Shown: positions 10,452 to 52,931 of the stretch, piece by piece
Layout: every line of letters begins with the position of its first letter
How positions within the stretch are numbered: position 1 is the stretch's first letter
Assembly (NCBI GenBank): GCA_036679405.1
Contig: JAVBVZ010000037.1
Span: forward strand, 18,236 to 82,235
DNA from: Christensenellaceae bacterium
GTDB taxonomy: Bacteria > Bacillota > Clostridia > Christensenellales > Christensenellaceae
Length of the DNA: 64,000 bases
Direction of reading: 5' to 3'
Made by a program: the position numbers and the translations under genes
The notes under the pieces: generated by a model
The model's database searches: none
What the model was told of the DNA's origin: nothing
Seen by the model: only the letters and a program-made list of their open reading frames with translations

Positions 10452-11254
10452 CATAAAACATTATTTTCAAATATAACGGTATCACAGTACCGGTTTGCTT
10501 TTTTAAGCTGTTCTTCCGTACGGATTGTCCATCCCAGTATGGGCAGTCCTTTTTTCCTTAGCCGTGACACCACTTTCCTTGGAAGATCGTCTATTTCGTA
10601 GCTGATAAAATTCGGACGCGCCATAAAGTTGGTAAGCAAATGTTTCAGCCCAAATACCTGATAGGCGGGCAGCGGCTCGGACAGGTCTCTAAATGCGGAA
10701 GAAAGCTGTCCGCGGAGCACCTCCGGCGCATGCGCAGAAAACCATCCAAGCGAATACGGTGAAAAAGACTGCACCGCAAACAGGCCGTCATATTGTTTTA
10801 GAAGCGCCCATGTTTTTTCTTCCAGTTCACCTGCTTTTCCCCTGCTTTTTATTTCGATCAGCAAAGGGACCCGTCCGTTTACCATGTGCAAAACATCTTC
10901 AAAAAGCGGAACGCCCTCTTTGCTCCCCGCCAAAAAAAGATTTGACAGCGTTTTTGCATCAAGCGCAGATACCGCCCGGTCCATTCCCGTCATCCTTTTC
11001 AAATTGTCGTCATGGATCACAACCGGAACCCCGTCGGATGAAAGATGGACATCCAGTTCGATGCCATATCCGCTTTCGGCCGCCCGCCGGAAAGCATACA
11101 TGGAATTCTCCGGAACGCCCTCTCCGTGCAGCCCCCGATGCGCATAGCGGTAAGCCGCTATCCAGCTTTCCGCCCTTTCTCCTTTGGTAATCAAAAAATA
11201 TCCTGCCCACACCGCCACAAAAACCAAAGCAACTGTCAAAATCCAAAACAGCAT
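10451..11254 (-). CDS. membrane-anchored glycerophosphodiester phosphodiesterase
   Basis: N-terminal TM helix followed by [13 protein letters not shown]...[18 protein letters not shown] (GDPD motifs). Confidence 0.85.
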
Positions 11255-11416
11255 AATTATGTGCCTCTTTTCCTTTTAAACTATACCTTTTTTTGTTTTT
11301 CATTTCAACCGCCCGTTTTTGACTTTTCAAACATTTTACATACCCCGCCCCCCTATACATATTGTATAATTTCAAACGATTTGTTATACTATACGGTAGT
11401 CGCTTTGGAGGAACAT

Positions 11417-14400
11417 ATGCAAAAATACAAATTAGGTTTAGATGTTGGCTCAACTACGGTTAAGCTTGTTATTATAGACGATCAGGATCAGATCATTTTC
11501 AGTGAATATATGCGCCACTTTTCAGACATGCGCGGCGTTCTGACGGATCTATTTAAACTGGCCAAGGAAAAATGCGGAGAGCTTTCGGTCGTGACGGCGG
11601 TTACCGGATCGGGCGGCCTTACGGTTTCCCGTCTTTTAAATTTGCCCTTTGTCCAGGAGGTTGTCGCCGGCGCAAGGGCCACGCAAAAATTTATACCCGA
11701 AGCGGATGTCGTGCTTGAATTCGGCGGTGAAGACGCAAAAATCACTTACATGAAACCCAGCCTGGAACAGCGCATGAACGGAACCTGTGCGGGCGGTACC
11801 GGCGCGTTTATCGACCAGATGGCCATGCTTTTAAACACAACGCCCTCCGGCCTTAATGAACTGGCTGCCAAACACGGCGCCATTCATCAGATTGCTTCCC
11901 GTTGCGGCGTATTTGCCAAAAGCGATATTCAATCTTTGCTGAACGACGGCGTATCCAAAGCGGATATCGCGGTTTCAATATTCCAGTCGGTCGTCAACCA
12001 GACAATATCAGGCCTGGCTTGCGGAAGACCTATTCGTGGGAATGTCGCCTTTTTGGGTGGTCCGCTCCATTACCTGCCCGAATTGCGCGTCCGTTTTCGT
12101 GAGACGCTTAACCTTACGGACGAAAGCATGATCCACCCGGAAAACTCCCATCTTTTTGTTGCACTGGGCGCCGCGCTGATGGCGGAAAGCGGCGAAACCA
12201 CTGTCTCCGAACTCTATGACCGTCTGATCCATGCAGGCGACATTGAGCACGAAACCCGGCGGCTTGATCCCTTGTTCTCTTCTCCGGAAGAAGCAGCTTC
12301 TTTTAAAGAGCGCCACGCCCAAAACAAGGCACAGCGCAAAGATTTGTCCGTCCACTCCGGGCCTTGCTATCTGGGTATTGACGCGGGCAGCACCACCATT
12401 AAGGCGGTCCTGATAGACGGCGACGCAAATATTCTTTTTTCTCATTATTCAAGCAACCACGGCAGTCCGCTCAGAGCGGCGGCCGGTATTTTAAAAAAGC
12501 TGTACGAACAGCTGCCTTCCGGTGCCGAAATAGCCGGTGCGTGCGTAACAGGTTACGGAGAAGCGCTGATCAGGGAAGCCCTGACTCTCGATTACGGAGA
12601 AGTTGAGACGATCGCCCACTACCGTGCGGCGGCTTACTTCAACCCAGATGTTGACTTCATCATAGACATCGGCGGGCAGGACATGAAAGCTTTGCGCATC
12701 CGGGACGGCGTTATTGAAACTATTATGCTGAACGAAGCCTGCTCTTCAGGCTGCGGCAGTTTTCTTGAAACGTTTGCCCATTCGCTGGATTTTGATATCC
12801 AGTCTTTTGCCGGGCAGGCGCAAACCGCCTCACATCCGGTAGACCTGGGCACACGTTGCACGGTGTTTATGAACAGCCGCGTGAAACAGGCGCAAAAGGA
12901 AGGCGCCTCGGTAGGCGATATCTCCGCCGGCCTTTCCTATTCCGTTGTAAAAAATGCCATCTATAAGGTGATCAAAATAAAAGACCCCGAGCAGCTTGGA
13001 GAACACATCGTTGTCCAGGGCGGCACTTTCCAAAACGACGCTATCCTCCGGGCCTTTGAAATGGTCCTCGGGCGCAAAGTGATCCGGCCGGACATTGCCG
13101 GACTGATGGGTGCTTTTGGCTGCGCGCTGATTGCACGTAAAAAATCCGCCGGCGGCCATTCTTCCATCATCACACCCGAAGAACTGGCAGACTTTTCTTT
13201 GAAAAGCAAAAACCGGCGCTGCGGCGGCTGTGAAAATCATTGCATGCTCAATATCATAACGTTTGCGGACGGACGCAAATTTATTGCGGGAAACCGCTGT
13301 GAGTTCGGCGCCGGGTTTGAAAAACGCAAGGATATTCCCGATCTTTTTGAATACAAATATATCCGTACGTTTGACTATCCGTCCCTGGGCGAGAGAGCAC
13401 CTTTGGGTACAATTGGGATTCCCCGCTGCCTGAATATGTATGAAAATTATCCGTTCTGGCATACGCTGCTGACCAAGTTCGGTTTTAACGTTGCGCTTTC
13501 CTCCCGTTCGGACCGTAAACTGTTTGAACTTGGGATGGATACGATTCCAAGCGACACCGTATGTTATCCGGCCAAACTGGCCCACGGGCATATTGCAGAT
13601 CTTTTAAAGCAGGGCGTCAAAACAATTTTTTATCCTTCCATCCCTTACCAGCCTAAGGAATACGAAGGCGCAAACAATCGCTTTAATTGTCCGATCGTTA
13701 CATCCTATCCGGATACGGTAAAAAATAATATGGACGACATCCGCGAAGACGGCATCACCTTCCTGCACCCATTTTTTAACCTAGACAACCGAAAATCCAT
13801 GCCGGGCCGGGTTTATGCAGAATTCAAAAGTTACGGCATCACCCGCAAACAGGCGGAAGAAGCCGTTAATGCCGCTTATGCCGCTCAGGAGCAGTACCGT
13901 GCGGACATCTGCAAAAAAGGCGAAGAAACACTCGCGTGGATGAAAAAAACAGGAACCCGTGGAATCGTACTGGCCGGGCGTCCTTATCATATTGATCCTG
14001 AGATCAACCATGGTATCCCTTCGCTAATCACCAGCTACGGCCTGGCAGTCCTTACAGAGGACAGCGTCGCCCACCTGGGCCACGTGGCGCGCCCTCTGCG
14101 TGTGCTTGACCAATGGGCCTTCCATACCCGGCTGTATGAAAGCGCGGGGTTGGTTGCCAAGACCCCGAACCTGGACATGATCCAGTTGAATTCCTTTGGC
14201 TGCGGCCTGGACGCTATTACGACCGACCAGGTAGAAGAGATCTTAAAAGCCGCGGGAAAAATTTACACGGTTTTAAAAATTGATGAAATCAATAACCTTG
14301 GCGCGGCCAAAATCCGCATCCGCTCTCTCATTGCGGCCCTGGAGGAAAAAACATTCGACCCGGAAAAATATAAAGAAGCGGGGCATGTTTTCCACCGCAG

Positions 14401-15664
14401 AATGTTTACCAAGGAAATGCGGGAACAGCATACTCTGGTATGTCCGCAGATGGCGCCGATTCACTGGCAGTTTTTACCCGACGCTTTCAATCCTACGGGG
14501 TACAACTTCGCCGTTATCAATGAGGTGACCAAAGAAGACATTGATGTTGGATTAAAATATGTAAATAACGACGCCTGTTACCCCACCATCATCGTAGTCG
14601 GGCAAATTGTCAACGCCTTTATCAAAGGCGACCTGGACCCTGACAACACTTCGGTAATGCTTACGCAAACCGGCGGCGGCTGCCGTGCGTCCAACTACAT
14701 TGCCTTTTTGCGCAAAGCACTCAGGGAAGCAGGTTTCCCGCAGGTGCCTGTTGTTTCGATCAACTTTTCGCGTCTGGAACCCAATCCGGGATTTAAATTT
14801 ACCGTCAAATTTGCAATGCGCATCATGATGGCCGTTTTATTTGGGGATCTTCTTATGAACGTGCTTTTGCGGACCCGTCCATACGAAACCAAAAAAGGTT
14901 CCACCAACGCTCTTTATTCTTCCTGGGTCAAAAAATGCAGCGCAATCATCCGGCGGGGCAAAAAAAGCGAATTCAAGCGTGCAGTGCGTGAGATCGTATC
15001 CGATTTTGAGGCGCTGCCCATTAACGATATTCCCAAGCCAAAAGTCGGCATTGTGGGCGAGATCCTGGTAAAATATCACCCGGTCGCCAACAATTTTGCC
15101 GCTGAAACCATAGAGGCCGAGGGCGGCGAATGCATTATGCCCGGGCTTATGGATTTTGGCCTGTATTCGTTTTACAACACGCAATTCTCCAGCAGCCATC
15201 TCGGCTCGAACAAGCTGCTTGGATTTGGAGGCCGGGTCGGTATTTCGGTCATAGAAAGTTACCGCAAATATTTAACGCGCGTCCTTGAAAAAAGCAAGCG
15301 CTTTTATACGCCCCAGCATATCCGGGATATTGCAAACCGTGCGGAAAGCGTGCTTTCGGTAGGTAACTGTACGGGTGAAGGCTGGCTTCTAACGGCGGAA
15401 ATGCTGGAGCTTATTGAAATGGGCGCGCCCAATATTATTTGTGTGCAGCCCTTCGCCTGCCTGCCCAACCACGTTATGGGCAAAGGCATGATCCGAGAGA
15501 TCCGGCGCCAGCACCCGCAGGCAAATATTATTCCGGTAGACTACGACCCCGGCGCCAGCGAGGTCAACCAGATCAACCGTATCAAGCTTATGATCTATGC
15601 CGCTTTTGAAAACATGCGCAAAGAACTGGACAACCAGGAAGAGTCGCTGAAAAAGGCGGAATAA
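11417..15664 (+). CDS. acyl-CoA dehydratase activase-related giant fusion (2x BadF/BadG/BcrA/BcrD ATPase plus C-terminal domain)
   Basis: Two ASKHA ATPase modules ([15 protein letters not shown]; [15 protein letters not shown]) and a Cys motif [11 protein letters not shown] at 11417 has GGAGG 5 nt upstream. The track's 1539-aa version runs antisense through the GDPD gene. Confidence 0.8.
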
Positions 15665-15675
15665 ATATTTCAAAC

Positions 15676-15722
15676 AAAAAAGGCATAAAACGCGCCGCCG
15701 CGCAAAGTTTTATGCCTTTTTT
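15676..15722. terminator. bidirectional terminator closing the RiPP-like operon and the activase gene
   Basis: Long stem AAAGGCATAAAAC/GTTTTATGCCTTT flanked by A-run and T-run. Confidence 0.75.
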
Positions 15723-16929
15723 ATTGCAGTCCGAATTTATGGACTTTTTCTTCAAGCCTTTTGGCCCGGCAGCCCGTTAAAACGCCCAATGTGATCTTAA
15801 AAGCTTTGACCGGCGAATGAATGAATTTGCCAACCCCCCTCTGCATCCAGGCGGCAGGTAAAAAAAACGGCCTCTTTTTTAAATAAGCATATCGCTTTGA
15901 CATCGCGCTGCACGGCGGGAACAGCACGGAACGCAAACGTGAAAACTGCGTTTGACCGCCGGTACTCTTTAACGTGCGGCTGTTTAAATTTTTTTTTGCC
16001 AATTCCCTGTCATAATGCAAAAACAAAGGATGCTCCCGCCCAAAGGCACCGTTCTCGAGTATCAATTCTCCCAGCTCGGCGCATATATCCGCCTCGGTGG
16101 CCCTGCCGATATCCACAGGCGCCTTCACACCAAACCAGTCTTCACATAAAGCAAATATATGCCGTGAAAATTGCAGGATTCCGCATTCATTCAATAATTC
16201 AGCCATCTTGCACGCATCTAAATCCCCTCCGTATCGCTTTTGCCATAAAGCGACATCCAGAAGCATCCTGACGCCAAATCCGTCCACCATATGTTTTGCC
16301 ATATGGAACAACATAATTATAAGATGATACTCCGGCTTTGGCCGCCTGCATCCCAAACCGCCGGAAGAAACCGTATTTTCCCAAATATCCGAAAAAATCC
16401 GGCTGTCTATCTTTAAAGATCCCGTTGAGTAAAACAAGGTGTCATGGATCTCAATACATACTCCTTTTTCATTACGATAGGTCCATTCACTGTCTTTTTT
16501 AAAACGGACGTAGCCCGATTCCATCAAGATTGCATGGCACCGGGACCGGTCTTTTGGATATACCAGTATATCTATGTCCCCCATCGTTCTGAGTTCCGGG
16601 TTCGGATAAACGTCACGGACCACAACCCCTTTAAAAGGCATATACGGCATGCTCTCTTTATCGGCTCTTTGGCTGAAGTCCAAAAGCGCCCGTTCCTGCA
16701 GTACGGAACTGCAGATGGAGGCGAAATACCCTTTTTTCAGCAACGCGCTTTCATTTGAGGGCAGCGGAACGTTCACCTTTTTTAAAACGGCATACGCAAT
16801 CCCTTCCACATTATGAATTCTGCAAAGGCGGCAAAAATCTTTCCAGTCCGTATCCGCCGCCTCCAAGGCCCCCTTACCGGCCAGATAATAGCCGAGGAGT
16901 TTTATAAAAAAATGCTGCGTCCTGTTCAT
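15721..16929 (-). CDS. PF14907-like uncharacterised nucleotidyltransferase (RiPP-associated type)
   Basis: YMPFKGVVVRDVYPNPELRTMGDIDILVYPKD matches the NTP_transf_5 core as I remember it. Start overlaps the ABC exporter stop (ATGA). Confidence 0.65.
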   Translation of the reverse strand: MNRTQHFFIKLLGYYLAGKGALEAADTDWKDFCRLCRIHNVEGIAYAVLKKVNVPLPSNESALLKKGYFASICSSVLQERALLDFSQRADKESMPYMPFKGVVVRDVYPNPELRTMGDIDILVYPKDRSRCHAILMESGYVRFKKDSEWTYRNEKGVCIEIHDTLFYSTGSLKIDSRIFSDIWENTVSSGGLGCRRPKPEYHLIIMLFHMAKHMVDGFGVRMLLDVALWQKRYGGDLDACKMAELLNECGILQFSRHIFALCEDWFGVKAPVDIGRATEADICAELGELILENGAFGREHPLFLHYDRELAKKNLNSRTLKSTGGQTQFSRLRSVLFPPCSAMSKRYAYLKKRPFFLPAAWMQRGVGKFIHSPVKAFKITLGVLTGCRAKRLEEKVHKFGLQ

Positions 16930-18668
16930 ACGGCTCCTTTTTTGCTGGATTCTTTTTTGTTTTCAAGCGGCAATTCCCTGACCGTTCCGCCCTTGATTTC
17001 CAGGGCCCGGGTGCAATAATCCAGCATTGAACGCCGGTGGGTAATAATAAAGCCGGTATGCAGCAAATTCGACTCCCGCATCCGCCGTATCACGCGTTCT
17101 TCGGTATCTTCATCCAACGCAGAGGTTGCCTCGTCCAGAATCAATATGGGCGCATCTTTCAGGACTGCTCGTGCAATCGCAATCCTTTGGGCCTGTCCCT
17201 CGGATAATCCGAGCCCGTTTTCGCCTATATTTGTTTTAACGCCCTCTTCAAGGCTTTCGACAAAAGAGAGGCAATCGGCTATTTCGAGCGCGCGGCGCAT
17301 TTGTTCGGGTGTAACATCCTCTTTTCCGGCCCGCAGATTATCCTCCAGCGTCCCGGAAAGCAGCGTGTTTCCCTGGGGTACATAAGATATAAATCGCCGC
17401 GCCTCAGCGGAAGCATCCTCCAGCGCTCCAAAATCACCCGAAAACTCAATTTTTCCCTCTTGCGCTTCTACCAGCGACAACATCAAGCGTACCATTGTTG
17501 TTTTTCCGCATCCGCTTTCCCCGACAATGCCCACAACCTCATTTGGCTCAATCCGGAGACCGACGTCCCGCAAAACATGATCTCGTCCATAGCCGAAGGA
17601 AAGATTTTTGATTTTTACTCCAATATTCTGCACACACGGCCCCGGCATTTTTATGCCTCTCTTTTCTTCCTGCACCGCATCCAGTTCCATCACGCGCCCC
17701 GCGGAAGCCAGTACCGTAATAAACCTTGGTATAATGGTCCCCAGATTGATGATCGGTCCCTGTACCTGCGCAACCAGAGATAAAAATATCGTCATGGTCC
17801 CATAGGTTATACTGCCGCTGGAAAGCCTGTATATCCCCCAGCCGAACGCCAGCAGGTATCCAATGCTGAAAACAGAGCGTATGCAGAGATTCATCATGGT
17901 GTTCAGCCTGTTCCTCTTCAAAATGACCGCCAGGCGCTTTTCTTTGTATTCCAGCATTTTTTCGTTGCAAAAAACTTCCTGCTCAAATGTCTTGGTAACG
18001 GCAATATTTTCAATGGTTTCCTGCATGAACGCGCGATATTCCGATTCTGTTTTGTTCAGTTCCACCTGATATGTTTTCAATTTTCCACTAAAGGCCAAAC
18101 TTAAAACCACGCCGACCGGCCCTATCATGAGGGCGGCCATGGCCAAAAAGTGGTCATAATGGAACAAAACAAAAAAAGCGCTCACCAATTGAAAAAGCAG
18201 CAAGAATATATTAGGGATCATGGAAGAAATGCCATTTGAAATTTTTTCAACATCACTGGTCAGGCGGGTCACGATATCTCCGCTGTGATAAGACATGACT
18301 TTCTGCCATACGCCACGCAGAATGCTGTTATATACTTTTGTACGGATCCCAAAAGCATACCGTTCGCTGATATAAGAAGTCAAAATGCCCACTACCGCAC
18401 TGATGCCGATTCCAAGGGCGGTCAGGCCTATCAGAAGCGCAAGGCCCTGCGTAGAAAACACAGGGCCTTCACCGGTTGCACCGTCAATAATATATTTGGT
18501 CACAACCGTGCTTCCGATGCCCGCAATGGTTATAACCAGGTTCAAAGTCAGAATCAGTATAAACGAGCCCATGAAAGGCCGGGTTTTATCCATCATCCAC
18601 TTCAGGCAGGAGGAGTTGTTTTTTCGGTCCTTCAAAAACCGAATCAGTTTTTTTAAAGTTTCCCGCAT
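16926..18668 (-). CDS. ABC exporter, fused permease/ATPase (type I exporter), no C39 peptidase domain
   Basis: 6-TM N-domain; Walker A GESGCGKTT, signature LSEGQAQRIAIARAV, Walker B ILILDEATSALD. ATG at 18668 (MRETLKK...) follows GGGAG. Confidence 0.85.
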   Translation of the reverse strand: MRETLKKLIRFLKDRKNNSSCLKWMMDKTRPFMGSFILILTLNLVITIAGIGSTVVTKYIIDGATGEGPVFSTQGLALLIGLTALGIGISAVVGILTSYISERYAFGIRTKVYNSILRGVWQKVMSYHSGDIVTRLTSDVEKISNGISSMIPNIFLLLFQLVSAFFVLFHYDHFLAMAALMIGPVGVVLSLAFSGKLKTYQVELNKTESEYRAFMQETIENIAVTKTFEQEVFCNEKMLEYKEKRLAVILKRNRLNTMMNLCIRSVFSIGYLLAFGWGIYRLSSGSITYGTMTIFLSLVAQVQGPIINLGTIIPRFITVLASAGRVMELDAVQEEKRGIKMPGPCVQNIGVKIKNLSFGYGRDHVLRDVGLRIEPNEVVGIVGESGCGKTTMVRLMLSLVEAQEGKIEFSGDFGALEDASAEARRFISYVPQGNTLLSGTLEDNLRAGKEDVTPEQMRRALEIADCLSFVESLEEGVKTNIGENGLGLSEGQAQRIAIARAVLKDAPILILDEATSALDEDTEERVIRRMRESNLLHTGFIITHRRSMLDYCTRALEIKGGTVRELPLENKKESSKKGAV

Positions 18669-18972
18669 ATTCGCAGCTCCCGCTAGAGAAAAACAGTTTT
18701 TTAAAGTTCCGCTTAAACAGCCTCTTTTTAAAAGCTGCGTCTTGCCTGTGATCCAAATTTTTTCACGATGCGGCAATCCGTCCGTATCCGCCGCCTTAGC
18801 CAGGGGCGGCGCGCAAATAAGGAAGCCTTCTTAAAAAAGGGTATATAAACGGCCTGCGCGTTACCTGTACCCACAGGCAAATCAGGTTTCCGCCCTTTTG
18901 AAAATTTTTTTTAAAATCCACGGAAAGCCACGCGGCTTTCAGCCCCGTCAGTTATCCGGCTTTGATCATCTA

Positions 18973-19131
18973 TTAGTTATTTACCGAAACCAGTTCCGGA
19001 GTGCCTGATGTGCAGCTGCTCGTGCCTACATTGGTCCAAACTGAAAAACACGAACTTCCCGATGCGGCAATATGTTCTGAAAAACAGAATTCGGTAACTT
19101 CCAAACGCGGTGTTTCATATTCTTTTTTCAT
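18973..19131 (-). CDS. 52-aa candidate RiPP precursor peptide
   Basis: MKKEYETPRLEVTEFCFSEHIAASGSSCFSVWTNVGTSSCTSGTPELVSVNN, with AAGGAG RBS about 9 nt upstream. Sits immediately downstream of the rSAM/SPASM gene. Cys16/28/40 are periodic. Confidence 0.7.
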   Translation of the reverse strand: MKKEYETPRLEVTEFCFSEHIAASGSSCFSVWTNVGTSSCTSGTPELVSVNN

Positions 19132-19182
19132 ATAAGACTTCTCCTTATAAATATAAATGAACAGCAATGCTTTCTTTGCGCA

Positions 19183-20343
19183 TTACAGTTTTCTGATACC
19201 CTCCAGCGCCATTCGCTTTCCTTCGGCGCACACCCGCGGATTTGCCCGCCCTTCTCCCACAGCCAGCCAATGCACGGCAGGACACAGGACGCACACTCTG
19301 TTATAAAGGCACCCGTCACACTCTTCCGGCATACGGTATTCACACGAACGTTTATAAACGGTATCCCAGGCGGCCGCAAAACCGGATTCAAGGGGAAACG
19401 CCTGCACAAAATCAAACGCGTTGCACGGCGTCATTTTCCCATCCCAGCTTATGGAGAATCGAATCCGCCCCGCCGTGCAGCGAACGCCCTTTACGTTTTG
19501 AAATGGCCTGTCCTCCGCCGTCCCGGCTCTGTCCAGCAAATCCGCTTCACAGGAATAAGGTGCCGGGGTTTTCCCTTCCATTTTCAGCCTTATCCCGGCT
19601 ATTTTAACCATATCATCCAGTGTGACCGAATAATTGTCATATTTCCGCCCCGTTTCTACGCGCGGTTCAAAGGGGAACGCCGTCACATTGCAGCCAAATG
19701 GCTCTTTTGAGCGGCAGTACCTTAAAACCGCTTCAAAATCATTCACAATCTGCCTTGACAGGGTGATTGCAAGATTAAACGGCAGATCCGCGTCCTTTAC
19801 AAGATCAATGGCCCTGTCCACTTCCAAGAAAGCTTCGGCGCTTCCGGTCACCGCCCTGTAGCCTTCGGGCGAACTTCCGTAAACTGAAATCTGGATCTGT
19901 TCAGGAGGGCGTTCACGCATCCAGGCAACGGTTTTTTCATCGAGCAGCGTCCCGTTTGTCAAAACGGTGACCAGTATGCCCCTTGCCTGCAGATGTTCGT
20001 AAATTTCTTTAAACCCGGGATGCATCAAACATTCTCCGCCGGTCAGGGTGGCATGCATCATGCCCGCTTCACAGGACTGGTCTATCAGATCAATCCACTG
20101 CCCTGCGGAAAGCTCATCACAATGCATCTGCCCGGGTTTTAGATGCACATAGCACATGGCGCAGTTCAGCGTGCATCTGGGCGTCAGTTCAAAGCAGCCT
20201 ATCAGAGGGATTCCCCGCTCCCAGGCTTTTTTTCTCATATAATTATAAAACGCATCCGCTTTTTCGATGCCTTTTTTCTGTTCAAGACATTCAAGAAGCT
20301 TTGACATTCCTCTTTGTTCCTCAGCTTTCCTGCAAAATTTCAA
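19183..20343 (-). CDS. radical SAM/SPASM domain peptide maturase
   Basis: CTLNCAMCY (CxxxCxxC). C-terminal SPASM pattern CTAGRIRFSISWDGKMTPC ... CDGCLYNRVCVLC. TTG start at 20343 overlaps the upstream gene; an alternative ATG is at 20307. Confidence 0.85.
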   Translation of the reverse strand: MKFCRKAEEQRGMSKLLECLEQKKGIEKADAFYNYMRKKAWERGIPLIGCFELTPRCTLNCAMCYVHLKPGQMHCDELSAGQWIDLIDQSCEAGMMHATLTGGECLMHPGFKEIYEHLQARGILVTVLTNGTLLDEKTVAWMRERPPEQIQISVYGSSPEGYRAVTGSAEAFLEVDRAIDLVKDADLPFNLAITLSRQIVNDFEAVLRYCRSKEPFGCNVTAFPFEPRVETGRKYDNYSVTLDDMVKIAGIRLKMEGKTPAPYSCEADLLDRAGTAEDRPFQNVKGVRCTAGRIRFSISWDGKMTPCNAFDFVQAFPLESGFAAAWDTVYKRSCEYRMPEECDGCLYNRVCVLCPAVHWLAVGEGRANPRVCAEGKRMALEGIRKL

Positions 20344-21475
20344 GCTCTCTTAATTGGCCCAAAACCGCGCTCAGATCACCTTTTGCCGTTTTTTCATCCG
20401 TTTCATACTCGTCCAAAACGGATTGGAGGACATCTTCTTCGGAAACCGGCTGTTCCATCTGCTTCCATATAAAAGCAGCCACTTCGTTTAATACGATCGC
20501 GCCCTCAAAGTTTTTTATATTTCTTCCGGTAGGCATGACTACCCATTCGTCCATTACATTCTTCAAGAGAAATCCTTCCTTGATCTTCATATCTGGCTGC
20601 TCCTTTTCCAATCGATCGATTTCATCATCAAACAATATCCTGCGCATCACCTCGGCGCTTGAGGGATCAGGCAGGCAAAAAAAACGGTAACACGGAACGC
20701 GCCCGGATATCTGCCGGATCGTCTTTAAAACTTCAAACTTGGCCGTATCGTCCCACATTGGAATCAGGCACTGTTGGGCCAACAGCTTAAAGGCCTGTTT
20801 GCTGTTCAGCTTGCGCACAAGATTGCGTTTTCCTCTCCGCACTTCTACGATTGCCGACACGGGATATTCTTTTTGTAAAAAAACCCGTTCCTTGCCGTCC
20901 CAGGGTACGCCGGATGCATATAACGCTTCATCCCGCATATGCAAAAAAGGCCGGTCACCGCTTAACATATCCGCTCCCAAACATTTTTCCCACAAAGCGG
21001 CCTGCGTGCTTTTTCCCGTTCCGGCCGGCGCCGAAAAAAGCACCGCCCGCCCGTTCAGGCATACGCAAGAAGCATGTATCCCCAGCCCATGATCTGCTGC
21101 CATGCGGCATTCCGCGGCCAGCCTCAGCAATTTTATAAAATTTTCCTGTAATACGCCTCTGTTTGAATTCTGTCCCGCCTCAACATATCCTTGCAGTTTC
21201 TCATAGTTATCCGACGCTTCAAGGCTACAGCGGTTTTTCGTATCTGTACTCAAAAAAAGCCATCTTCCCCCACCCAGATCGGCAATTCTGACTCCCATTC
21301 CTTCCGATACATAAGTCGATCCGGTATATTCAGGCAAGATGCCAAAATACAGCTCAAGAAACGCATCACAGCTGTAAGGTATTTTGCTTTTAAAAAAAGA
21401 TAACGGGCTGTCCAGTAAAAAATCACTCTTATCCAACACCCGCAAACAATATCCGGCAAAAAAGAATTTTTGCAT
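20321..21475 (-). CDS. HPr-kinase-like P-loop domain fused to C-terminal PqqD-family (RRE) domain
   Basis: HASCVCLNGRAVLFSAPAGTGKSTQAALW is an HprK C-domain-like P-loop. The last ~90 aa, IVLNEVAAFIWKQMEQPVSEEDVLQSVLDEYETDEKTAKGDLSAVLGQLRELEIL, are PqqD-like. Confidence 0.7.
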   Translation of the reverse strand: MQKFFFAGYCLRVLDKSDFLLDSPLSFFKSKIPYSCDAFLELYFGILPEYTGSTYVSEGMGVRIADLGGGRWLFLSTDTKNRCSLEASDNYEKLQGYVEAGQNSNRGVLQENFIKLLRLAAECRMAADHGLGIHASCVCLNGRAVLFSAPAGTGKSTQAALWEKCLGADMLSGDRPFLHMRDEALYASGVPWDGKERVFLQKEYPVSAIVEVRRGKRNLVRKLNSKQAFKLLAQQCLIPMWDDTAKFEVLKTIRQISGRVPCYRFFCLPDPSSAEVMRRILFDDEIDRLEKEQPDMKIKEGFLLKNVMDEWVVMPTGRNIKNFEGAIVLNEVAAFIWKQMEQPVSEEDVLQSVLDEYETDEKTAKGDLSAVLGQLRELEILQES

Positions 21476-21610
21476 TATATATGTTATGTACCTTCCCTTT
21501 CGTCAGCAAAATACCATATTTTATCCAAAGCGCATTATAAAATAATTATGAAGAACTGTAAATATGATTTTGTTTAAATCACTATTCTTTTGCCTTAAAT
21601 GTACGAAATG

Positions 21611-22066
21611 TTATTTGTGCCGCACCGACCTGCCCAACCGCTTTGCAAAAACCAAAATCTTCAGGATATGCTTTTTTATAAAAGATTTAAAATGATAAAG
21701 AGGCGTAACACGAAAAATCTTATTTTTCCGCCGGACCTGCCGGGCGATTCCAATGATATCGGATGTCAAAAAAGGCCCTTCGCATGTTTTTTGTGCATCT
21801 CCCCGGTAATACAAAAAATCGCTGCGGCACTTCACCACCCTATGCAGCAGGCAGTGTTCTCCCGCCTGCGTCAGAAGGATGTCTCCTTTTACAGGTTTAC
21901 GCTCCAATGGAACAATAAATACGCTGTCGCGCATATCCCGCAACGTCGGTGCCATGCTTTCGCCCGTTACAGTAAGCCAAAACCCCTGCCGGGCGGCAAT
22001 TTTTTCCCGCATTTGCGGTACAAGTACTTTTGGATCTCCAATATGAACCATACAATCCCATTCCAC
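21611..22066 (-). CDS. S24/S26-family (signal-peptidase-I-like) serine peptidase
   Basis: TVTGESMAPTL (GxSMxPT nucleophile box) and LLHRVV box. First gene of the operon. Confidence 0.65.
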   Translation of the reverse strand: MEWDCMVHIGDPKVLVPQMREKIAARQGFWLTVTGESMAPTLRDMRDSVFIVPLERKPVKGDILLTQAGEHCLLHRVVKCRSDFLYYRGDAQKTCEGPFLTSDIIGIARQVRRKNKIFRVTPLYHFKSFIKKHILKILVFAKRLGRSVRHK

Positions 22067-22209
22067 TTACAGCAAATCTCTTTTCCTTTGCTATTTTAGC
22101 ATGCTCCGCGCCGTTCGAACAGGCTTTCGCTGTTTAAAAATAAATTAAAAGGGGACGCTTTACACTGATTCTAGGCATCCCCCTTCATCTTAAAAAATTA
22201 TTTGTCCTC

Positions 22210-23058
22210 TTACTCTGCAATTACTTTTCTGAGCCAGGCCACACTGTTTGCAATGTTTTCATCGCTGCCGTTGCATTCAATGGAAACATCTCCCTCCCAG
22301 CCAGTTTCTTTCCAGTAATGAATGCAATCACGTATATTCTCCGCATTCACGCCCTGCCCTATGTAGACCGGCGAACAGGGAATTCCCGTTTCCTCGCCGC
22401 GAACAGCCGCAGCGAGGCCTGCGTCAACATCTTTTATATGAGAAGAAACAACATATTTTCCCAGGAACTTGAGGTATTCAAGCGGCGTATGTCCCTGTAT
22501 GAACGTATTTCCCGTATCAAAATTCACGCGCAGATATTCGCTTTCAAAATGCTTCATCAGTCTCATCATAAATTCAGGATCGCCGGTATACGGCCCATGC
22601 GGTTCCACGCAAACGATAATGTTATAATCCTCAGCCCATTTGAGTATCTCGGTATAATTCATCACCGTGATTTTATAAACTTCGTCCCGCGGGATATCCA
22701 GTTCTTTCCCCGAATCCGTGCTGTCCACTTTGGGGCAGCCCAGATCATGCGCAAACCGGATTGACTGGCAGCAATACTGAACCCCGTAAAAAGCACCGCG
22801 CGGTCCCATCATAGGATAAGACCCGTCTACCATTGAAATACGGACACCGGCTTTTTCAAGCATCCGGCGAATCTCCATTGGATTCTGTTCGGTAGAGAGG
22901 CTGGGTTCGTACCCCATTGCACTGATAAAATAATTTCCGTGGATCATTCCCGCCTCAATATGCTCCAATTTATGAAGCACAGCGGAAGCCAGTGCCTGAT
23001 CAAACCCTCCCGACCGCTCTCTCCAGTTATCCGCATGCATGCCAAGATGAATTGCCAT
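22210..23058 (-). CDS. sugar phosphate isomerase/epimerase (xylose isomerase-like TIM barrel)
   Basis: 282 aa, with VEPHGPYTGDP...NFDTGN...HIKD pattern of AP-endonuclease-2/TIM-barrel family. Confidence 0.7.
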   Translation of the reverse strand: MAIHLGMHADNWRERSGGFDQALASAVLHKLEHIEAGMIHGNYFISAMGYEPSLSTEQNPMEIRRMLEKAGVRISMVDGSYPMMGPRGAFYGVQYCCQSIRFAHDLGCPKVDSTDSGKELDIPRDEVYKITVMNYTEILKWAEDYNIIVCVEPHGPYTGDPEFMMRLMKHFESEYLRVNFDTGNTFIQGHTPLEYLKFLGKYVVSSHIKDVDAGLAAAVRGEETGIPCSPVYIGQGVNAENIRDCIHYWKETGWEGDVSIECNGSDENIANSVAWLRKVIAE

Positions 23059-27982: not shown

Positions 27983-28019
27983 AAAAGGCCCTGTCACTAA
28001 AGTGACATGGCCTTTTTTT
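27983..28019. terminator. bidirectional terminator
   Basis: A-run, stem GGCCcTGTCAC/GTGACAtGGCC, then 7 T. Confidence 0.7.
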
Positions 28020-28032
28020 GCTGGTCGGGGTG
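28015..28032. repeat. 18-bp direct repeat copy 1 (attL-like): duplicate of the tRNA-Pro 3' end plus 7 nt
   Basis: TTTTTGCTGGTCGGGGTG is identical to 29688-29705. Confidence 0.75.
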
Positions 28033-28157
28033 GTGATACAGGCTTTATCGCAGAAACCCAATGAAATTAATGGTTTTGAGCAGTTAATAGGCAGTATTTA
28101 TAAATATTTTTTAACCAAGAAGATAATGGAACGGTTTAAGCGCCATCCCCTTGTCGT

Positions 28158-28994
28158 TTAATCTTGTTTTTGTTTGTTTTGCCTTTTCTTTTTTACCTTA
28201 ATAAAAATAATTACGATAACAACAATTATTATTGGGATAGTCAAAAATCCTAATAGTTCAAAAAAATTGCCCAATACAGCTACTCCATTACTTCCCATAT
28301 TATCTTCCATTATCCTTAATTTCTCAGCAGGGATTTTCTTAACTTCATCAAAATGAATACTATCAATTATATTTTTCATTATTGTGCGTTGATTATCTGT
28401 TATAGGGGCTCCAATACTACTTAAATCAATTGCAACCATGTTTCCATTTATTATTGTTATATATCTTAATAAATTGTATTGTTGTCCTTGATTCTCCATA
28501 GAACCATCAACCTGAAAGAACAATGCTTGGGGATGTTCATAAATCGTATAAGATGTATATTCCACAGGAATATCTTGAGCTGCGCCGCCATCTTTAAAAG
28601 ATTGAAAAATAGTATCGGTCTCATCTGAAAAAATTTTATTTATTTCTGAATACTTGTCTCTAACTTGCTTTAAATCATATACGTCAGTCGTATCTACGCC
28701 TTGACTAAAACCAACTTCTGCAAATGTATCCCCTTTCAAGATAACATCTAAATAAGCATTTTTTTGTATAAATATTTGCCTTAATGTATCGCCATCAACG
28801 CCCAAGAGAGCTAAGTTAGGGTCATTAATATCAATATTTCTTGTAAAAACAATACTATCATCCGGTATTGATACTGACAGTCCCATCTCCTTAATAGTAT
28901 ATATATTAGAATCGAAGTCAGAAGCTAATGCTTTTGTGTTATTGAATATGAATAATATACTCATTAGGATTACTATTATTGACAATTTTTTCAT
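28158..28994 (-). CDS. hypothetical secreted protein with C-terminal TM anchor
   Basis: Signal peptide (..NNTKALA|SD), C-terminal TM IPIIIVVIVIIFI and a basic tail. Very AT-rich codons. No family recognised. Confidence 0.6.
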   Translation of the reverse strand: MKKLSIIVILMSILFIFNNTKALASDFDSNIYTIKEMGLSVSIPDDSIVFTRNIDINDPNLALLGVDGDTLRQIFIQKNAYLDVILKGDTFAEVGFSQGVDTTDVYDLKQVRDKYSEINKIFSDETDTIFQSFKDGGAAQDIPVEYTSYTIYEHPQALFFQVDGSMENQGQQYNLLRYITIINGNMVAIDLSSIGAPITDNQRTIMKNIIDSIHFDEVKKIPAEKLRIMEDNMGSNGVAVLGNFFELLGFLTIPIIIVVIVIIFIKVKKKRQNKQKQD

Positions 28995-29380
28995 AATAAT
29001 ACCTCCGGAAAAGACACGGGACGGTTCATTTGGCTTATCCGTTTCTCGTTCCTCTCACTGTTAAAAATCCTTAACACATACATTATATCACAATTGTTAA
29101 AACATGAAAATTTAGCCAATAAAAAACATTGTTGAAAAATAAAGCGAATCCTTTTTCCCCGCTCTCAAGCCATTAAAAAAACTCAGCCATCACTGACCTG
29201 GTCGGCGTAAAGTGATAGGACTTAGAGAAATCCAGTCATACCAATAATTTGAAGGTGGTCAGCAAGCAATATTTATACAGGAAAACAAGTATGCCCATCG
29301 TATTTAAGAACATTTCTTGAAACGGAATAAAAAAAGTGCGCTCATTTGAACGCCCCTTGCTGTTGAATACTTCGATTTTG

Positions 29381-29551
29381 CTATTTTGGACTGATCGCTT
29401 CTATCGGACACATTTGTGCACACTCTCCGCAATCAATACATATATCAGGATTAATTTCATAATGCGCCGGCCCTTCCGAAATACAACCGATAGGGCATTC
29501 GCCCTCACAGGTACCGCAAGAAATACACGCATCTGAAATAACATATGCCAT
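29381..29551 (-). CDS. clostridial-type 2x[4Fe-4S] ferredoxin (56 aa, not in ORF track)
   Basis: MAYVISDACISCGTCEGECPIGCISEGPAHYEINPDICIDCGECAQMCPIEAISPK, with two CxxCxxCxxxCP motifs. AAGGAG RBS is 9 nt upstream. Confidence 0.85.
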   Translation of the reverse strand: MAYVISDACISCGTCEGECPIGCISEGPAHYEINPDICIDCGECAQMCPIEAISPK

Positions 29552-29658
29552 AAAGCTCATCTCCTTTTTTCTTCAATGATAGTTCTATGTATGAATAATG
29601 TCAACCAAAAAGTACCCGCCATACATATGTTCTTGGATTTCTCCTTTATTGTTAGCAT

Positions 29659-29692
29659 AAAAAGACCATCGACATAAATCGATGGTCTTTTT
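29659..29692 (-). terminator. tRNA-Pro terminator (inside the islet side of the repeat)
   Basis: Stem GACCATCGA/TCGATGGTC with A/T runs on both sides. Confidence 0.65.
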
Positions 29693-29705
29693 GCTGGTCG
29701 GGGTG
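29688..29705. repeat. 18-bp direct repeat copy 2 (attR-like), overlapping the tRNA-Pro 3' end
   Basis: TTTTTGCTGGTCGGGGTG is identical to 28015-28032. Confidence 0.75.
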
Positions 29706-29771
29706 ACAAGATTTGAACTTGCGACCTCTTACTCCCGAAGCAAGCGCGCTACCAAACTGCGCTACACCCCG
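29695..29771 (-). tRNA. tRNA-Pro (anticodon CGG), CCA encoded
   Basis: Hand-folded cloverleaf: acceptor CGGGGTG/CACCCCG, D arm GCGC/GCGC, anticodon stem CTTGC/GTAAG with loop TTCGGGA, T loop TTCAAAT. 77 nt. Confidence 0.9.
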
Positions 29772-29785
29772 AACTCGCGATATCA

Positions 29786-29814
29786 ATTTTATCATAGATA
29801 AAAAACTTACACAA
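29786..29814 (-). promoter_or_regulatory. candidate tRNA-Pro promoter
   Basis: On the minus strand, TTGTGT-17 nt-TAAAAT ends about 14 nt before the tRNA 5' end. Confidence 0.35.
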
Positions 29815-29941
29815 GCATAAAAATAGATTTGTTGTATTTTTTTATTTACATTTAAAAAAGCGGCGCGGCCCTTAAGGCTGCATTGTTCATTTTAAAAAAA
29901 GAGCGGCCCTAAGGGCCGCTCAAAAACAATATCGGACGTTT

Positions 29942-30430
29942 TTACATCATCATGCCTAAGGCCCCGAAAGCTGCTCCGAAAATAACCGCAACAACAATCC
30001 ACCAAATCAAATAGATGATGCCGATAATCAATCCAATGATGCCCAGGATAAATCCTGCGAGCGCCATTCCCCGCTTGCCGTCCGGGAGCTCTTTTCTGCC
30101 TTTTCCGCCCAACACCATGGCTACGATCGCCAGAATCAGGCCAACAATAGGCACCCAGCACAAAACCAAACCAAGAATACCACAAATAAGCGCGCCAATG
30201 CCAATCCCGGAAGAAGGCTCGGCAGGCTGTGCTGTCGCCGCCGGTTGGCTGTACGCCTGTTGCTGTGGCTGGCTGTATGTTTGCTGCTGCTGCTCCGGCT
30301 GAGGTTGTTCCGGCTGAGGTTGTTCCGCCGCCGGCTGTTCGGACATTGTTTCCCCTGATGTGTCCGCCCCGCAAGAAGGGCAGAATTTCGCGCTGTCATC
30401 CATTTCTTTTCCACACTTTGCACAGTACAT
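29942..30430 (-). CDS. zinc-ribbon plus DUF4190-like membrane protein with P/Q-rich linker
   Basis: YCAKCGKEMDDSAKFCPSCG zinc ribbon, EQPQPEQPQPEQQQQ linker, and a Gly/Ile-rich TM pair. Confidence 0.7.
   Translation of the reverse strand: MYCAKCGKEMDDSAKFCPSCGADTSGETMSEQPAAEQPQPEQPQPEQQQQTYSQPQQQAYSQPAATAQPAEPSSGIGIGALICGILGLVLCWVPIVGLILAIVAMVLGGKGRKELPDGKRGMALAGFILGIIGLIIGIIYLIWWIVVAVIFGAAFGALGMMM
30295..30324. repeat. perfect 2 x 15-bp tandem repeat inside the P/Q linker
   Basis: CCGGCTGAGGTTGTT x2, encoding EQPQP-EQPQP on the minus strand. Confidence 0.8.
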
Positions 30431-33216: not shown

Positions 33217-34446
33217 TTACCGGTCCTGTTCGGCCCAAAAGATATCTTCCCCCATTTCAGGCATCTGGCCGCGGCTGCAAACGACACAATTTCCGCCCAT
33301 AAGCTTTGCTTCATACAGCGCACCGTCTGCCATCCGGTAAATCTTTTTAAGATCGGTTTCTTTTGTGGGGATGATTGTCACAATACCAATGCAGATCGTT
33401 ATTCTGATTTTTGCATGTTCGTAAATCGCTTTTATTTCTATCGTCCGCCGCATTCGCTCGGCCACCAGACTAGCTTCTTCTTCATTTGCGTCGGGCAGCA
33501 GTATAGCAAACTCATCCCCTCCATACCGTCCAAAAAGATCATATGAACGCAGCCCTTCCTGCACAATTAAAGCTACTTCTTTCAGCGCGGTATCTCCAAC
33601 ATAGTGTCCGTAAGTGTCATTCACTTTTTTAAAATCGTCTATATCAAACAACAAAAAGGAGACCGGCCCCTTCTTCCGTTCGAAATAGCGAAGGGAACGT
33701 TTTCCCTGTTCGGCAAATGCCCTGCGGTTTAAAATACCGGTCAGGCTATCCGTATTGGCTCTCTTAAGCAGCCGTATATCGGCCTGTTCCTTGGCCAGCA
33801 GAAAGTATCCGGTCCCGGACAAGATCATCATGACAAACAGGGCAAAGTTTATCCACGAATATATCTCTTCCACGGACGCAAAAGAAGCATGAAACAAGCC
33901 GACCGCAACCAGCATTCTTGATAAGAACCCCCCGATCACCAGCAAATACAAGATGCCCACAATCCTCTGCAAATATGATTTCTGATGATTGAATAAAAGA
34001 TGCAGCGCCGGGTATAAAATAAACAGCATACAAAAAGCGGATACTAAAACAATTCTTGCTTCCTGTCCGCTTACGGCAAAATAGAGAAAAGAATATGCCG
34101 CCGCAAAAGCGGCCGTCGCCAGCGGAAGAATTTTCTTTGCCCATAGCCGTCCGGCGCCAAAAAGCGCCAGTACAGCCAGCCCTTCCAGAGCGATTGCAGA
34201 AACAAACAATACGTTTTCCACAATCAAATAAAAAAAATCCATAGAAGAAGTATCTATGGCTCCGGTCATCAAAACACCAAGGCCCCATAAGATAAAATTT
34301 GTCATCTGACAAATTTTCGCAGCCAAAAAGATCTTCAAAGACCTGTCTTTGAGTATGTTTTTATAGCTTATAATCAGAACGATCATAAAGATGTCAACCA
34401 GAATGACCGCCAAGACGATTGTAGTGCTGTCGATAGACACCGTCAT
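33217..34446 (-). CDS. membrane-bound diguanylate cyclase (GGDEF)
   Basis: Multi-TM N-terminal sensor region; C-terminal DSLTGILNRRAF...RYGGDEF. Confidence 0.85.
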   Translation of the reverse strand: MTVSIDSTTIVLAVILVDIFMIVLIISYKNILKDRSLKIFLAAKICQMTNFILWGLGVLMTGAIDTSSMDFFYLIVENVLFVSAIALEGLAVLALFGAGRLWAKKILPLATAAFAAAYSFLYFAVSGQEARIVLVSAFCMLFILYPALHLLFNHQKSYLQRIVGILYLLVIGGFLSRMLVAVGLFHASFASVEEIYSWINFALFVMMILSGTGYFLLAKEQADIRLLKRANTDSLTGILNRRAFAEQGKRSLRYFERKKGPVSFLLFDIDDFKKVNDTYGHYVGDTALKEVALIVQEGLRSYDLFGRYGGDEFAILLPDANEEEASLVAERMRRTIEIKAIYEHAKIRITICIGIVTIIPTKETDLKKIYRMADGALYEAKLMGGNCVVCSRGQMPEMGEDIFWAEQDR

Positions 34447-41029: not shown

Positions 41030-41036
41030 TTTTCCC

Positions 41037-51281: not shown

Positions 51282-51541
51282 AGCTTGCCCTCCAAAATAA
51301 AAGCATTCCGGCATTTAGGTTATCATACCTTTACCTCCGGTATCTTGTCAATTCAACCGGAGTTTTCTTCTGTTTTGTACAAAACAGTACAAACACCTTA
51401 AAAGACCCTTTATCAAAAAAAAAGCCCCGGACAAGTGCCCAAGGCTTTTTTAATGATTTTTTTATTAATGCGGCCTCCCCTTATGGGAAGGCTGCCGCTG
51501 TTGCGGCGTGCGGGGTTTTTCCCCGTTAATATTCTGTTTTT

Positions 51542-52766: not shown

Positions 52767-52795
52767 TGGACAAAAACAAGCGTAATGGGTATAAT
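52767..52795 (+). promoter_or_regulatory. tRNA-Val promoter
   Basis: TGGACA-17 nt-TATAAT, about 32 nt before the tRNA 5' end. Confidence 0.55.
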
Positions 52796-52826
52796 ACGTT
52801 TATTGGCAAAATTCCACACCTTATAT

Positions 52827-52903
52827 GGAGGCATAGCTCAGCTGGTTAGAGTACTTGCTTGACATGCAAGGGGTCACTGGTTCAAGTCCAGTTGTCTCCA
52901 CCA
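52827..52903 (+). tRNA. tRNA-Val (anticodon GAC), CCA encoded
   Basis: Hand-folded: acceptor GGAGGCA/TGTCTCC, anticodon stem CTTGC/GCAAG with loop TTGACAT, T arm ACTGG-TTCAAGT-CCAGT. 77 nt. Confidence 0.9.
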
Positions 52904-52931
52904 AAAAAACCGCATTTTGGTGCGGTTTTTT
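52904..52931 (+). terminator. tRNA-Val terminator
   Basis: Stem ACCGCA/TGCGGT followed by 6 T. Confidence 0.7.

Follow-up and report, generated by a model that had tools for sequence, protein, structure and literature searches.

The 64,000-nt stretch of DNA analysed here (Christensenellaceae bacterium, assembly GCA_036679405.1, contig JAVBVZ010000037.1, positions 18,236-82,235, forward; hereafter the window) carries on its minus strand, between 15721 and 22066, six consecutive and closely spaced open reading frames (ORFs), and the locus is confirmed as an operon that serves to make a small secreted peptide with chemical modifications, a ribosomally made and post-translationally modified peptide (RiPP). 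The operon is likely to direct a pathway of the type described for the Linear Polyphosphorylated Peptides (LPP), with an added maturation step by a radical S-adenosylmethionine (rSAM) enzyme of the SPASM group. The evidence for this reading comes from the precursor family, from the conserved linkage of the rSAM gene with genes for a kinase and a RiPP recognition element (RRE), and from the correspondence of the gene set with that of LPP. The six closely packed genes had been noticed in a first-pass annotation of the window, made from the letters alone, and all are present at the proposed positions in a mechanical ORF list. The same six genes, including the ORF of 52 aa, were called on other assemblies by an independent gene caller, which sets the starts later and gives lengths, in order of transcription, of 146, 372, 374, 52, 580 and 402 aa. 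The genes are as follows.

21611..22051, minus strand: signal-peptidase-I-like leader peptidase of the SipW/archaeal type (S24/S26 clan), LppS-like; 146 aa counted from the ATG, with a mechanical ORF that reaches to 22066 from a GTG start
20321..21475, minus strand: fusion protein with a beta-rich domain at the N-terminus, then an HprK-like P-loop kinase, and a PqqD/RRE domain at the C-terminus; 384 aa
19183..20307, minus strand: rSAM/SPASM peptide maturase without an RRE domain; 374 aa counted from the ATG (20307), with a mechanical ORF that reaches to 20343
18973..19131, minus strand: precursor peptide MKKEYETPRLEVTEFCFSEHIAASGSSCFSVWTNVGTSSCTSGTPELVSVNN; 52 aa, with an AAGGAG ribosome-binding site; called as a gene by the independent pipeline
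16926..18668, minus strand: MsbA-like ATP-binding cassette (ABC) exporter, a permease-ATPase fusion without a C39 peptidase domain; 580 aa, with a mechanical ORF that reaches to 18776
15721..16929, minus strand: enzyme of the PF14907 nucleotidyltransferase (NTase) fold, PsmN/LppN-like; translationally coupled to the ABC gene via ATGA

Precursor family and modification enzymes

The 52-aa ORF, for which a ribosome-binding site of its own had been proposed, has the sequence AAGGAG 8 nt ahead of its ATG, and it is taken as a genuine precursor gene on the basis of 81 further sequences with the same leader. The window's sequence and these 81 from related loci form a family of 82 distinct precursors. 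The leader consensus, anchored on Tyr, is M-K-K-x-Y-E-T-P-x-[AV]-E-x-V-x-F-x-Y-x-D-Q-V-V-A-[SA]-[SG], in which Y, P and F are 100% conserved. A Ser or Thr stands at the leader-core junction, at +18 to +21, in all 82 precursors. All 82 also carry at least one Cys behind the leader; 66 have exactly two, located 7-18 residues apart. The core of the window's peptide follows the scaffold C-x3-W-x-N-x-G-x3-C and continues with a tail of 12 aa. Its conserved pair is C28 and C40, a further Cys, C16, lies within the leader at a variable column, and the C-terminal residue is Asn. Recurring positions of the cores include an aromatic residue (W or Y) at Cys1+4 (57%), Asn at Cys1+6 (45%) and Gly at Cys1+8 (34%). 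The tail behind Cys2 is mostly 10-12 residues long, 47 of the 66 two-Cys precursors falling within this range, and this near-constant length hints at a fixed fold or at fixed positions of crosslinks. Tandem precursor genes with different cores, up to five in number, occur together with two or three rSAM paralogues in some related clusters (for example L031, 10756-12303, and L029, 8194-9007; also L010-L012, L015, L047 and L067), which suggests that the products diversify within a single locus. The hypervariable cores and the tandem copies together suggest that bacteria may use the peptide to compete with or signal to one another.

Homologues of the rSAM enzyme number 562 in the protein collection, and they are found in at least 593 species genomes of a GTDB-based collection. 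With the rSAM protein as the search seed, 80 related loci were fetched, their ORFs were called, and these were searched with profiles made from the window's proteins; linkage was counted in those 46 of the loci that are 12 kb or longer. The companions of the seed and the small ORF recur in other genomes: the RRE is present in 44 of the 46 long loci, the kinase domain in 42, the S24/S26 peptidase in 37, the exporter in 31 and the PF14907 enzyme in 18. A fusion of kinase and RRE occurs in 52 of the 80 loci, 11 have the two solely as separate genes, and in 23 of the 80 a second or third rSAM paralogue adjoins extra precursors. The 80 genomes are mostly labelled as Clostridia, including Oscillospiraceae, Lachnospiraceae, Acutalibacteraceae and unclassified metagenome-assembled genomes from gut and rumen. 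Nine of the related loci come from bins labelled Bacteroidota (L008, L016, L018, L024, L031, L034, L039, L041 and L045), with the names Alloprevotella, Bacteroides uniformis, Phocaeicola dorei, Alistipes, Prevotella and Paludibacteraceae. As the family is otherwise clostridial, these nine represent either mis-binning or transfer between phyla.

The PqqD/RRE, HprK-like, PF14907, rSAM/SPASM and S24/S26 assignments of the first-pass annotation are borne out by Pfam scores in combination with AlphaFold2 models, Foldseek searches and invariant residues. On the fusion protein, Pfam places a PqqD domain at residues 310-381 of 384 (56 bits). Among the NCBIfam models, HprK_rel_A and ScmC match weakly, at the P-loop, and for the N-terminal part of its homologues PF27840 (ScmC) is precomputed. 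The AlphaFold2 model, built from 45 homologues, reached a predicted local distance difference test score (pLDDT) of 94 and a predicted template-modelling score of 0.90. Foldseek matched its middle part to the HPr kinase/phosphorylase structures 3tqf, 1kkm and 1knx of the PDB (probability 1.00, identity of 20% or less) and to the related phosphoenolpyruvate carboxykinase fold, and its C-terminus to the lasso RRE TbiB1 (template-modelling score 0.81, root-mean-square deviation 1.9 A). By sequence, the best PDB matches of the RRE are TbiB1, PbaB1 and TfuB1. In 45 sequences with identity down to 33%, H134, the Walker A residues G154-K155-S156, D174-R175 and a PWDGKE motif are invariant, and the retention of these catalytic residues over such a distance argues for an active kinase.

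Within the RRE of the same 45 sequences D367 is invariant and N330 nearly so. The two residues align with G42 and Q79 of PbaB1 (PDB 9x90), positions that correspond to N33 and D70 of LppB, the residues by which the kinked Pro and the Tyr in the YxxP motif are fixed (PMC13381572). The presence of Asn and Asp at these Pro- and Tyr-fixing positions places the fusion RRE in the Tyr-binding LPP/lasso type and not in the Trp-binding paeninodin type, which is consistent with the invariant Tyr of the leader.

The rSAM enzyme matches Radical_SAM (PF04055) with 71 bits, and its SPASM match in Pfam, 17.5 bits, lies under the cut-off of 21.5. The CX3CX2C motif (C57/C61/C64) is invariant in 33 aligned homologues, and so are seven Cys of the SPASM region, arranged as C289-x12-G-x4-C307, C342/C345/C351/C354 and C372. 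Its closest relative of known structure is SkfB, a thioether-forming enzyme (E = 1e-16). The rSAM core begins about 40 residues into the 374-aa protein, so that a separate RRE would not fit in front of it. No model reaches its cut-off among the 25 top-scoring of 55 NCBIfam matches, which are led by PqqE, AhbD, ScmE, SkfB and MftC; the scores against curated maturases are 64.5 versus 300 for SkfB, 59.7 versus 850 for AlbA and 47 versus 625 for StsB.

The peptidase has marginal support by sequence, with 24.6 bits for Peptidase_S24 (PF00717) against a cut-off of 23.3. Its AlphaFold2 model from 19 homologues (pLDDT 88) matched, by Foldseek, LexA, lambda cI and the type I signal peptidases SpsB, SipA and that of E. 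coli. S37 (in TGxSMxPT), H75 (in LLHRV) and D90 (in GDA) are invariant among the homologues. The enzyme thus has the Ser/His arrangement of SipW/Sec11-type signal peptidases and not the Ser/Lys arrangement of LexA; the clan and the fold proposed in the first-pass annotation are confirmed, while a LexA-type enzyme is not what the invariant S37 and H75 indicate. An assignment of the leader cleavage site by the -3/-1 rule of signal peptidases was rejected and the rule was not used, because LppS breaks it by cutting after F-E-T.

The exporter matches ABC_membrane (122 bits) and ABC_tran (97 bits), and Pfam gives no C39 (PF03412) match on it, in agreement with its initial description as lacking that domain; its top NCBIfam match is MsbA, with a score far under the model cut-off. 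The NTase, whose ATGA overlap with the ABC gene had likewise been predicted and is present in the sequence, matches NTP_transf_5 (PF14907) with 154.7 bits, and its D118-x-D120 pair is invariant in 30 of 30 homologues. According to the pseudomycoidin study, the phosphorylated peptide gains additions of +162 Da only with PsmN, which depends on such a DxD pair. Peptidase, precursor and NTase have no family in NCBIfam, and the PDB sequence search gave no match for the NTase or the peptidase.

Comparison with known peptide systems

The combination of genes had not been recognised as any characterised RiPP class in the first-pass annotation, whose interpretation holds as to the RiPP operon with a genuine precursor and missed the LPP context: peptidase, kinase, RRE, NTP-transferase, exporter and YxxP leader form the set of the LPP class, defined in Bacilli in May 2026 (Popov et al., Nat Commun, PMC13381572). 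The LPP set of Paenibacillus alginolyticus, lppA-K-B-S-D-N, includes LppS, a SipW-like type I signal peptidase, LppB, a discrete RRE, LppK, an HprK-like kinase, LppN, an uncharacterised NTP-transferase, and LppD, an MsbA-like exporter, and its precursor carries the leader YxxPxVLxHQxIxFETxxS (PMC13381572). LppK attaches several phosphates to Ser3 of the LppA core; LppS (S29/H68/D93) cuts the leader after T-1, for which LppB is required, and processes the unphosphorylated precursor poorly (PMC13381572). The P. alginolyticus strain is DSM5050; its lpp locus lies around PAL01S_RS16300, and LppS has the accession WP_029196374.1. For comparison with the window, fragments of the LPP proteins were rebuilt from the published mutagenesis primers, giving for LppA the sequence MEENTKREQKLYARPMVLSQQPVRFET followed by AQSWNKGKGN, for LppS MQFHKEFVQIMTHAINKRGWIELPARGTSMYPFI and ...GNLVAHRFCR..., and likewise a fragment of LppB. 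The window's peptidase has the same N-terminal helix as the rebuilt LppS, then R-x-G-(F)W-L-x-V-x-G-x-S-M-x-P and x-L-(L/A)-H-R, so that TGESMAP and LLHRV correspond to RGTSMYP and VAHRF of these primer-derived fragments.

Five of seven components match LPP. The two systems are alike in the SipW-type peptidase with its Ser/His/Asp set, in the HprK-like kinase, in a lasso-type RRE with Asn and Asp, in the YxxP leader with a conserved Ser shortly past it, and in the NTP-transferase and MsbA-like exporter, where the likeness to LppN and LppD rests on the published descriptions. They differ in several respects. The RRE is discrete in LPP, whereas in the window it is fused to the C-terminus of the kinase. 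The window's family conserves an rSAM/SPASM enzyme, while the published LPP core set has no macrocyclising enzyme, and the cores of the window's family, some 25-35 aa in length, are short and carry a conserved pair of Cys. Past the YxxP, its leader runs ...ExVxFxYxDQVVAS against ...VLxHQxIxFETxxS in LPP, the common part being YxxPx[LVA] and a Glu at +14. The hosts are Clostridia of gut and rumen instead of Bacilli, and the window's cluster lies outside any capsule locus. What is added relative to LPP is limited to an rSAM/SPASM enzyme, the fusion of kinase with RRE, and a core that bears Cys. In the text of the LPP paper there is no mention of radical SAM, SPASM, rSAM, Clostridia or a kinase-RRE fusion, the fusions in it being laboratory tag constructs only, and the accessible part of its supplements contains none of the terms 'radical SAM', 'SPASM', 'PF04055', 'PF14907' or 'Clostridi' (PMC13381572). 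Because the RRE is fused, the leader consensus is different and a macrocyclising enzyme is present, the locus is not LPP as defined, and it is not a member of the curated sactipeptide, ranthipeptide, Scm or GeoRSP families either.

Paeninodin and pseudomycoidin share with the window an HprK-like kinase, a PF14907-type enzyme (PsmN, responsible for attaching hexose to the phosphate), a B1-type RRE, a YxxP/WxxP leader and an ABC exporter. In contrast to these, the window has no Asn-synthetase-like cyclase and no B2 cysteine protease, and its RRE carries N and D where that of paeninodin carries G and Q. These lasso peptides are phosphorylated at a C-terminal Ser. The same modification is unlikely for the present product, because the window's peptide ends in Asn and just 4 of the 82 precursors end in Ser. 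Lasso peptides in general share the B1-type RRE and the YxxP leader, and differ in having cyclase C and protease B2.

The window's maturase resembles those of sactipeptides and ranthipeptides in its rSAM/SPASM architecture with CX3CX2C, in the Cys donors of the core and in SkfB being the nearest solved structure. It differs in that no curated maturase model was matched, and the kinase, the NTase and the SipW-like peptidase are foreign to those classes. Sacti- and ranthisynthases usually carry an N-terminal RRE, which the window's rSAM enzyme does not; unlike them, it would have to rely on the RRE fused to the kinase. The PqqD/PqqE pair offers an analogy, since there an RRE in trans presents the peptide to an rSAM/SPASM enzyme without its own RRE. 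The differences from that pair are the PqqE score (84 bits versus 381) and the hypervariable cores, exporter and multiple precursors of the window's family, which indicate a secreted peptide and not a cofactor like pyrroloquinoline quinone.

Haft's SynChlorMet (Scm) cassette and GeoRSP, defined in TIGRFAM/NCBIfam, are said to combine an HprK-related protein with a homologue of PqqD and with rSAM/SPASM enzymes that resemble PqqE, the same pairing as in the window, in different taxa. To our knowledge neither system has been characterised experimentally, and we know of no SipW-like peptidase or YETP-type precursor in either definition. The scores of the window's proteins against the respective cut-offs are 16.8/125 for ScmC, 75.6/400 for ScmE, 51.7/400 for ScmF, 20.6/200 for HprK_rel_A and 15.4/200 for HprK_rel_B. 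A literature search for RiPPs combining HPr kinase, radical SAM, PqqD and nucleotidyltransferase returned lasso reviews and a review of radical SAM RiPPs highlighting other clusters. Neither the RRE-Finder paper nor the Mitchell compendium of rSAM enzymes mentions a kinase or an NTase; a 2014 survey mentions HPr kinase in lasso clusters only, and the Hungate1000 survey has no ranthipeptide-kinase-nucleotidyltransferase cluster.

Proposed pathway and its alternatives

Based on the correspondence with LPP, we can propose a sequence of steps for the favoured LPP-type pathway with an rSAM/SPASM step. The C-terminal RRE of the fusion would bind the invariant YxxP of the leader, as predicted from sequence and by structural analogy. 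The fused kinase would then phosphorylate the Ser of the leader-core junction, S24 in the window's peptide, by analogy with LppK acting on LppA; the Ser/Thr conserved at this junction in every precursor is comparable to Ser3 of LppA. The rSAM/SPASM enzyme may dock on the same complex of RRE and leader, as PqqE does on PqqD, and modify the core at C28 and C40, the products most likely being thioethers of the sactionine or ranthionine type; this assignment follows from what is known of the SPASM maturase family and from the conserved Cys pair. The SipW-like Ser/His peptidase, in the manner of LppS, would remove the leader. The PF14907 enzyme could decorate the phosphate, much as pseudomycoidin, once phosphorylated, receives hexose from PsmN, and this step is considered optional because the NTase gene is found in just about 40% of the related loci. 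Finally, the MsbA-like ABC transporter would export the product.

Several observations weigh against this pathway. The similarity of the fusion to HprK is weak by sequence (E = 2e-4). The top NCBIfam match of the rSAM enzyme is PqqE, at 84 bits against a cut-off of 381, and PqqE forms a C-C bond and not a thioether. The two Cys could form a simple disulfide, with the rSAM enzyme acting elsewhere, such as on the aromatic residue at Cys1+4 or the Asn at Cys1+6. For LppN, the LPP study recorded no activity (PMC13381572), and many related loci lack the NTase, the ABC exporter or both, as the counts given above indicate. The leader departs from that of LPP past the YxxP, and its conserved Ser stands at +19/+20 from the Tyr against +18 in LPP, so that neither the LPP cleavage site nor the LPP phosphorylation site is confidently transferable.

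An ordinary sactipeptide or ranthipeptide cluster, in which the HprK-like domain is a non-catalytic scaffold carrying the RRE and no phosphorylation takes place, would account for the weak matches of the HprK-family models, which are confined to the P-loop, and for the completeness of a minimal set of rSAM enzyme, RRE, precursor, protease and exporter with SkfB as the nearest solved relative. We regard it as unlikely. The strict conservation of GKS, H134, D174-R175 and PWDGKE in 45 sequences is unexpected for a dead domain, and the occurrence of the kinase apart from the RRE, as a separate gene in 11 of the 80 loci, indicates that the kinase is kept for its own sake. Moreover, the homologous LPP kinase is active, and a junction Ser/Thr is present in every one of the precursors. 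The opposite simplification, a plain LPP-type phosphopeptide cluster in which the rSAM/SPASM enzyme is an unrelated neighbour or a cofactor maker, is improbable. It draws on the best NCBIfam matches being the cofactor enzymes PqqE and AhbD, both under their cut-offs, and on the published LPP clusters, which need no rSAM enzyme. Against it stands the position of the rSAM gene, whose ATG begins 13 nt past the stop of the kinase-RRE gene and which is followed directly by the precursor gene, as well as the presence of kinase and RRE beside the seed rSAM in 42-44 of the 46 long loci. The lack of its own RRE is also typical of enzymes relying on an RRE in trans, the conserved Cys of the core are unmentioned in the description of LPP, and extra rSAM paralogues lie by extra precursors in 23 of the 80 loci.

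A lasso pathway with its cyclase and B2 protease encoded elsewhere in the genome could be considered, as the RRE is closest to lasso B1 proteins, the YxxP is of lasso type, and both kinase and NTase are known as lasso tailoring enzymes. The lack of both lasso enzymes had been reported in the first-pass annotation, and none was found in the operon, in the approximately 20 kb annotated around it or among the scanned window ORFs of at least 400 aa. Specifically, no Asn-synthase-like protein is present among these scanned ORFs, which do not include two ORFs of about 410 aa (33217-34446 and 50070-51314) that are considered too short for a lasso cyclase. No B2 protease is present in the operon or the annotated neighbourhood of about 20 kb, ORFs of B2 size elsewhere in the window having been scanned in part, and neither a cyclase nor a transglutaminase-like protease appears among the Pfam-annotated neighbours. 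The set that recurs in the 80 related loci consists of peptidase, kinase/RRE, rSAM, ABC and NTase, and in the position of B2 there is a dedicated S24/S26 peptidase, the same as is found in LPP with its linear product. For these reasons we give a remote lasso pathway hardly any probability.

The LPP-type pathway with an added rSAM/SPASM step is thus retained. Whether it amounts to a class of its own is a more tentative matter: at somewhat less than an even chance, the locus represents the first RiPP class with a kinase-installed Ser (poly)phosphate, an optional PF14907 cap and rSAM crosslinks, in which a single kinase-fused RRE serves the kinase, the rSAM enzyme and the SipW-like peptidase in turn. 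With at least 593 species, the majority of them Clostridia from gut and rumen, such a class would be widespread and could be a major, hitherto unrecognised family among the peptides of the microbiome.

Transcription signals, neighbouring genes and significance of the family

Three candidate transcription signals were located in and around the operon.

15676..15722, both strands: intrinsic terminator, bidirectional, that separates the NTase gene from the convergent plus-strand gene upstream
22093..22101, minus strand: candidate extended -10 (TGcTAAAAT) upstream of the peptidase gene, from direct reading of the sequence
21534..21562, minus strand: TTTACA-17-TATAAT, a promoter-like match to 11 of 12 consensus positions, within the 135 bp that separate the peptidase gene from the kinase-RRE gene

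The strong bidirectional terminator proposed at 15676-15722 is substantiated by a hairpin of -28.9 kcal/mol (z = -5.4; none of 200 shuffles gave an equal fold), flanked by an A-run and a T-run. The extended -10 string had also been read correctly, the letters at 22101-22093 being TGCTAAAAT; it is absent from the output of the promoter consensus scan. The top sigma-70-like match of the operon region is TTTACA-17-TATAAT at 21562-21534. Since the count of promoter-like matches across the region equals the chance expectation, both promoter candidates are unproven. With this promoter-like site in the 135-bp gap, the peptidase may be transcribed apart from the remaining operon. The idea of an attenuator after the precursor gene was dropped, as the hairpin at 18923-18940 is non-significant (z = -1.26). 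The Rfam scan of the window gave only two tRNAs, both distant from the operon.

The genes on either side of the operon are unrelated to it. On one side a convergent plus-strand BcrAD/DUF2229 gene ends at 15664, and on the other an AP_endonuc_2 gene occupies 22210-23058. The former (11045-15664, plus strand) is a mechanical ORF of 1539 aa, for which the independent pipeline gives 1415 aa with BcrAD_BadFG and DUF2229 domains; the protein resembles a fusion of activator and component of 2-hydroxyacyl-CoA dehydratase, and the first 124 or so codons of the ORF are probably non-coding.

Farther away, at 41037-42413 on the minus strand, a 458-aa protein combines a LigB/Memo-like domain with AMMECR1 and is adjacent to an ORF of 331 aa (40154-41149, minus strand). 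Together the two resemble the three-gene system 'AmmeMemoRadiSam', here with two of its components fused, the 331-aa ORF being included for its position. Another radical SAM protein, 710 aa long and unrelated to the first, carries a C-terminal DUF5714 and is encoded at 56570-58702 on the plus strand, directly followed by a fusion of thioredoxin and thioredoxin reductase (58733-60013, plus strand). Two islands of low GC content, 28001-30000 (0.353) and 52001-54000 (0.382), stand out from the window value of about 0.47. Each contains a tRNA gene, at 29698-29771 (minus strand) and 52827-52900 (plus strand), respectively, and the islands may be integration sites of mobile elements.

In this operon a module of kinase, RRE, SipW-like peptidase and NTase is joined to radical-SAM chemistry, a combination that is common in gut and rumen Clostridia and whose product is uncharacterised. 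Hybrid RiPP clusters as such are unsurprising; it is the combination of enzymes that is unusual. Generic genome-mining rules are expected to label the family at best as 'RRE-containing', and its short, hypervariable, two-Cys cores make heterologous testing easy. If the proposed pathway is true, a phosphorylated and crosslinked peptide scaffold would be added to RiPP chemistry, and a natural case would be at hand in which a single RRE serves three unrelated enzymes.

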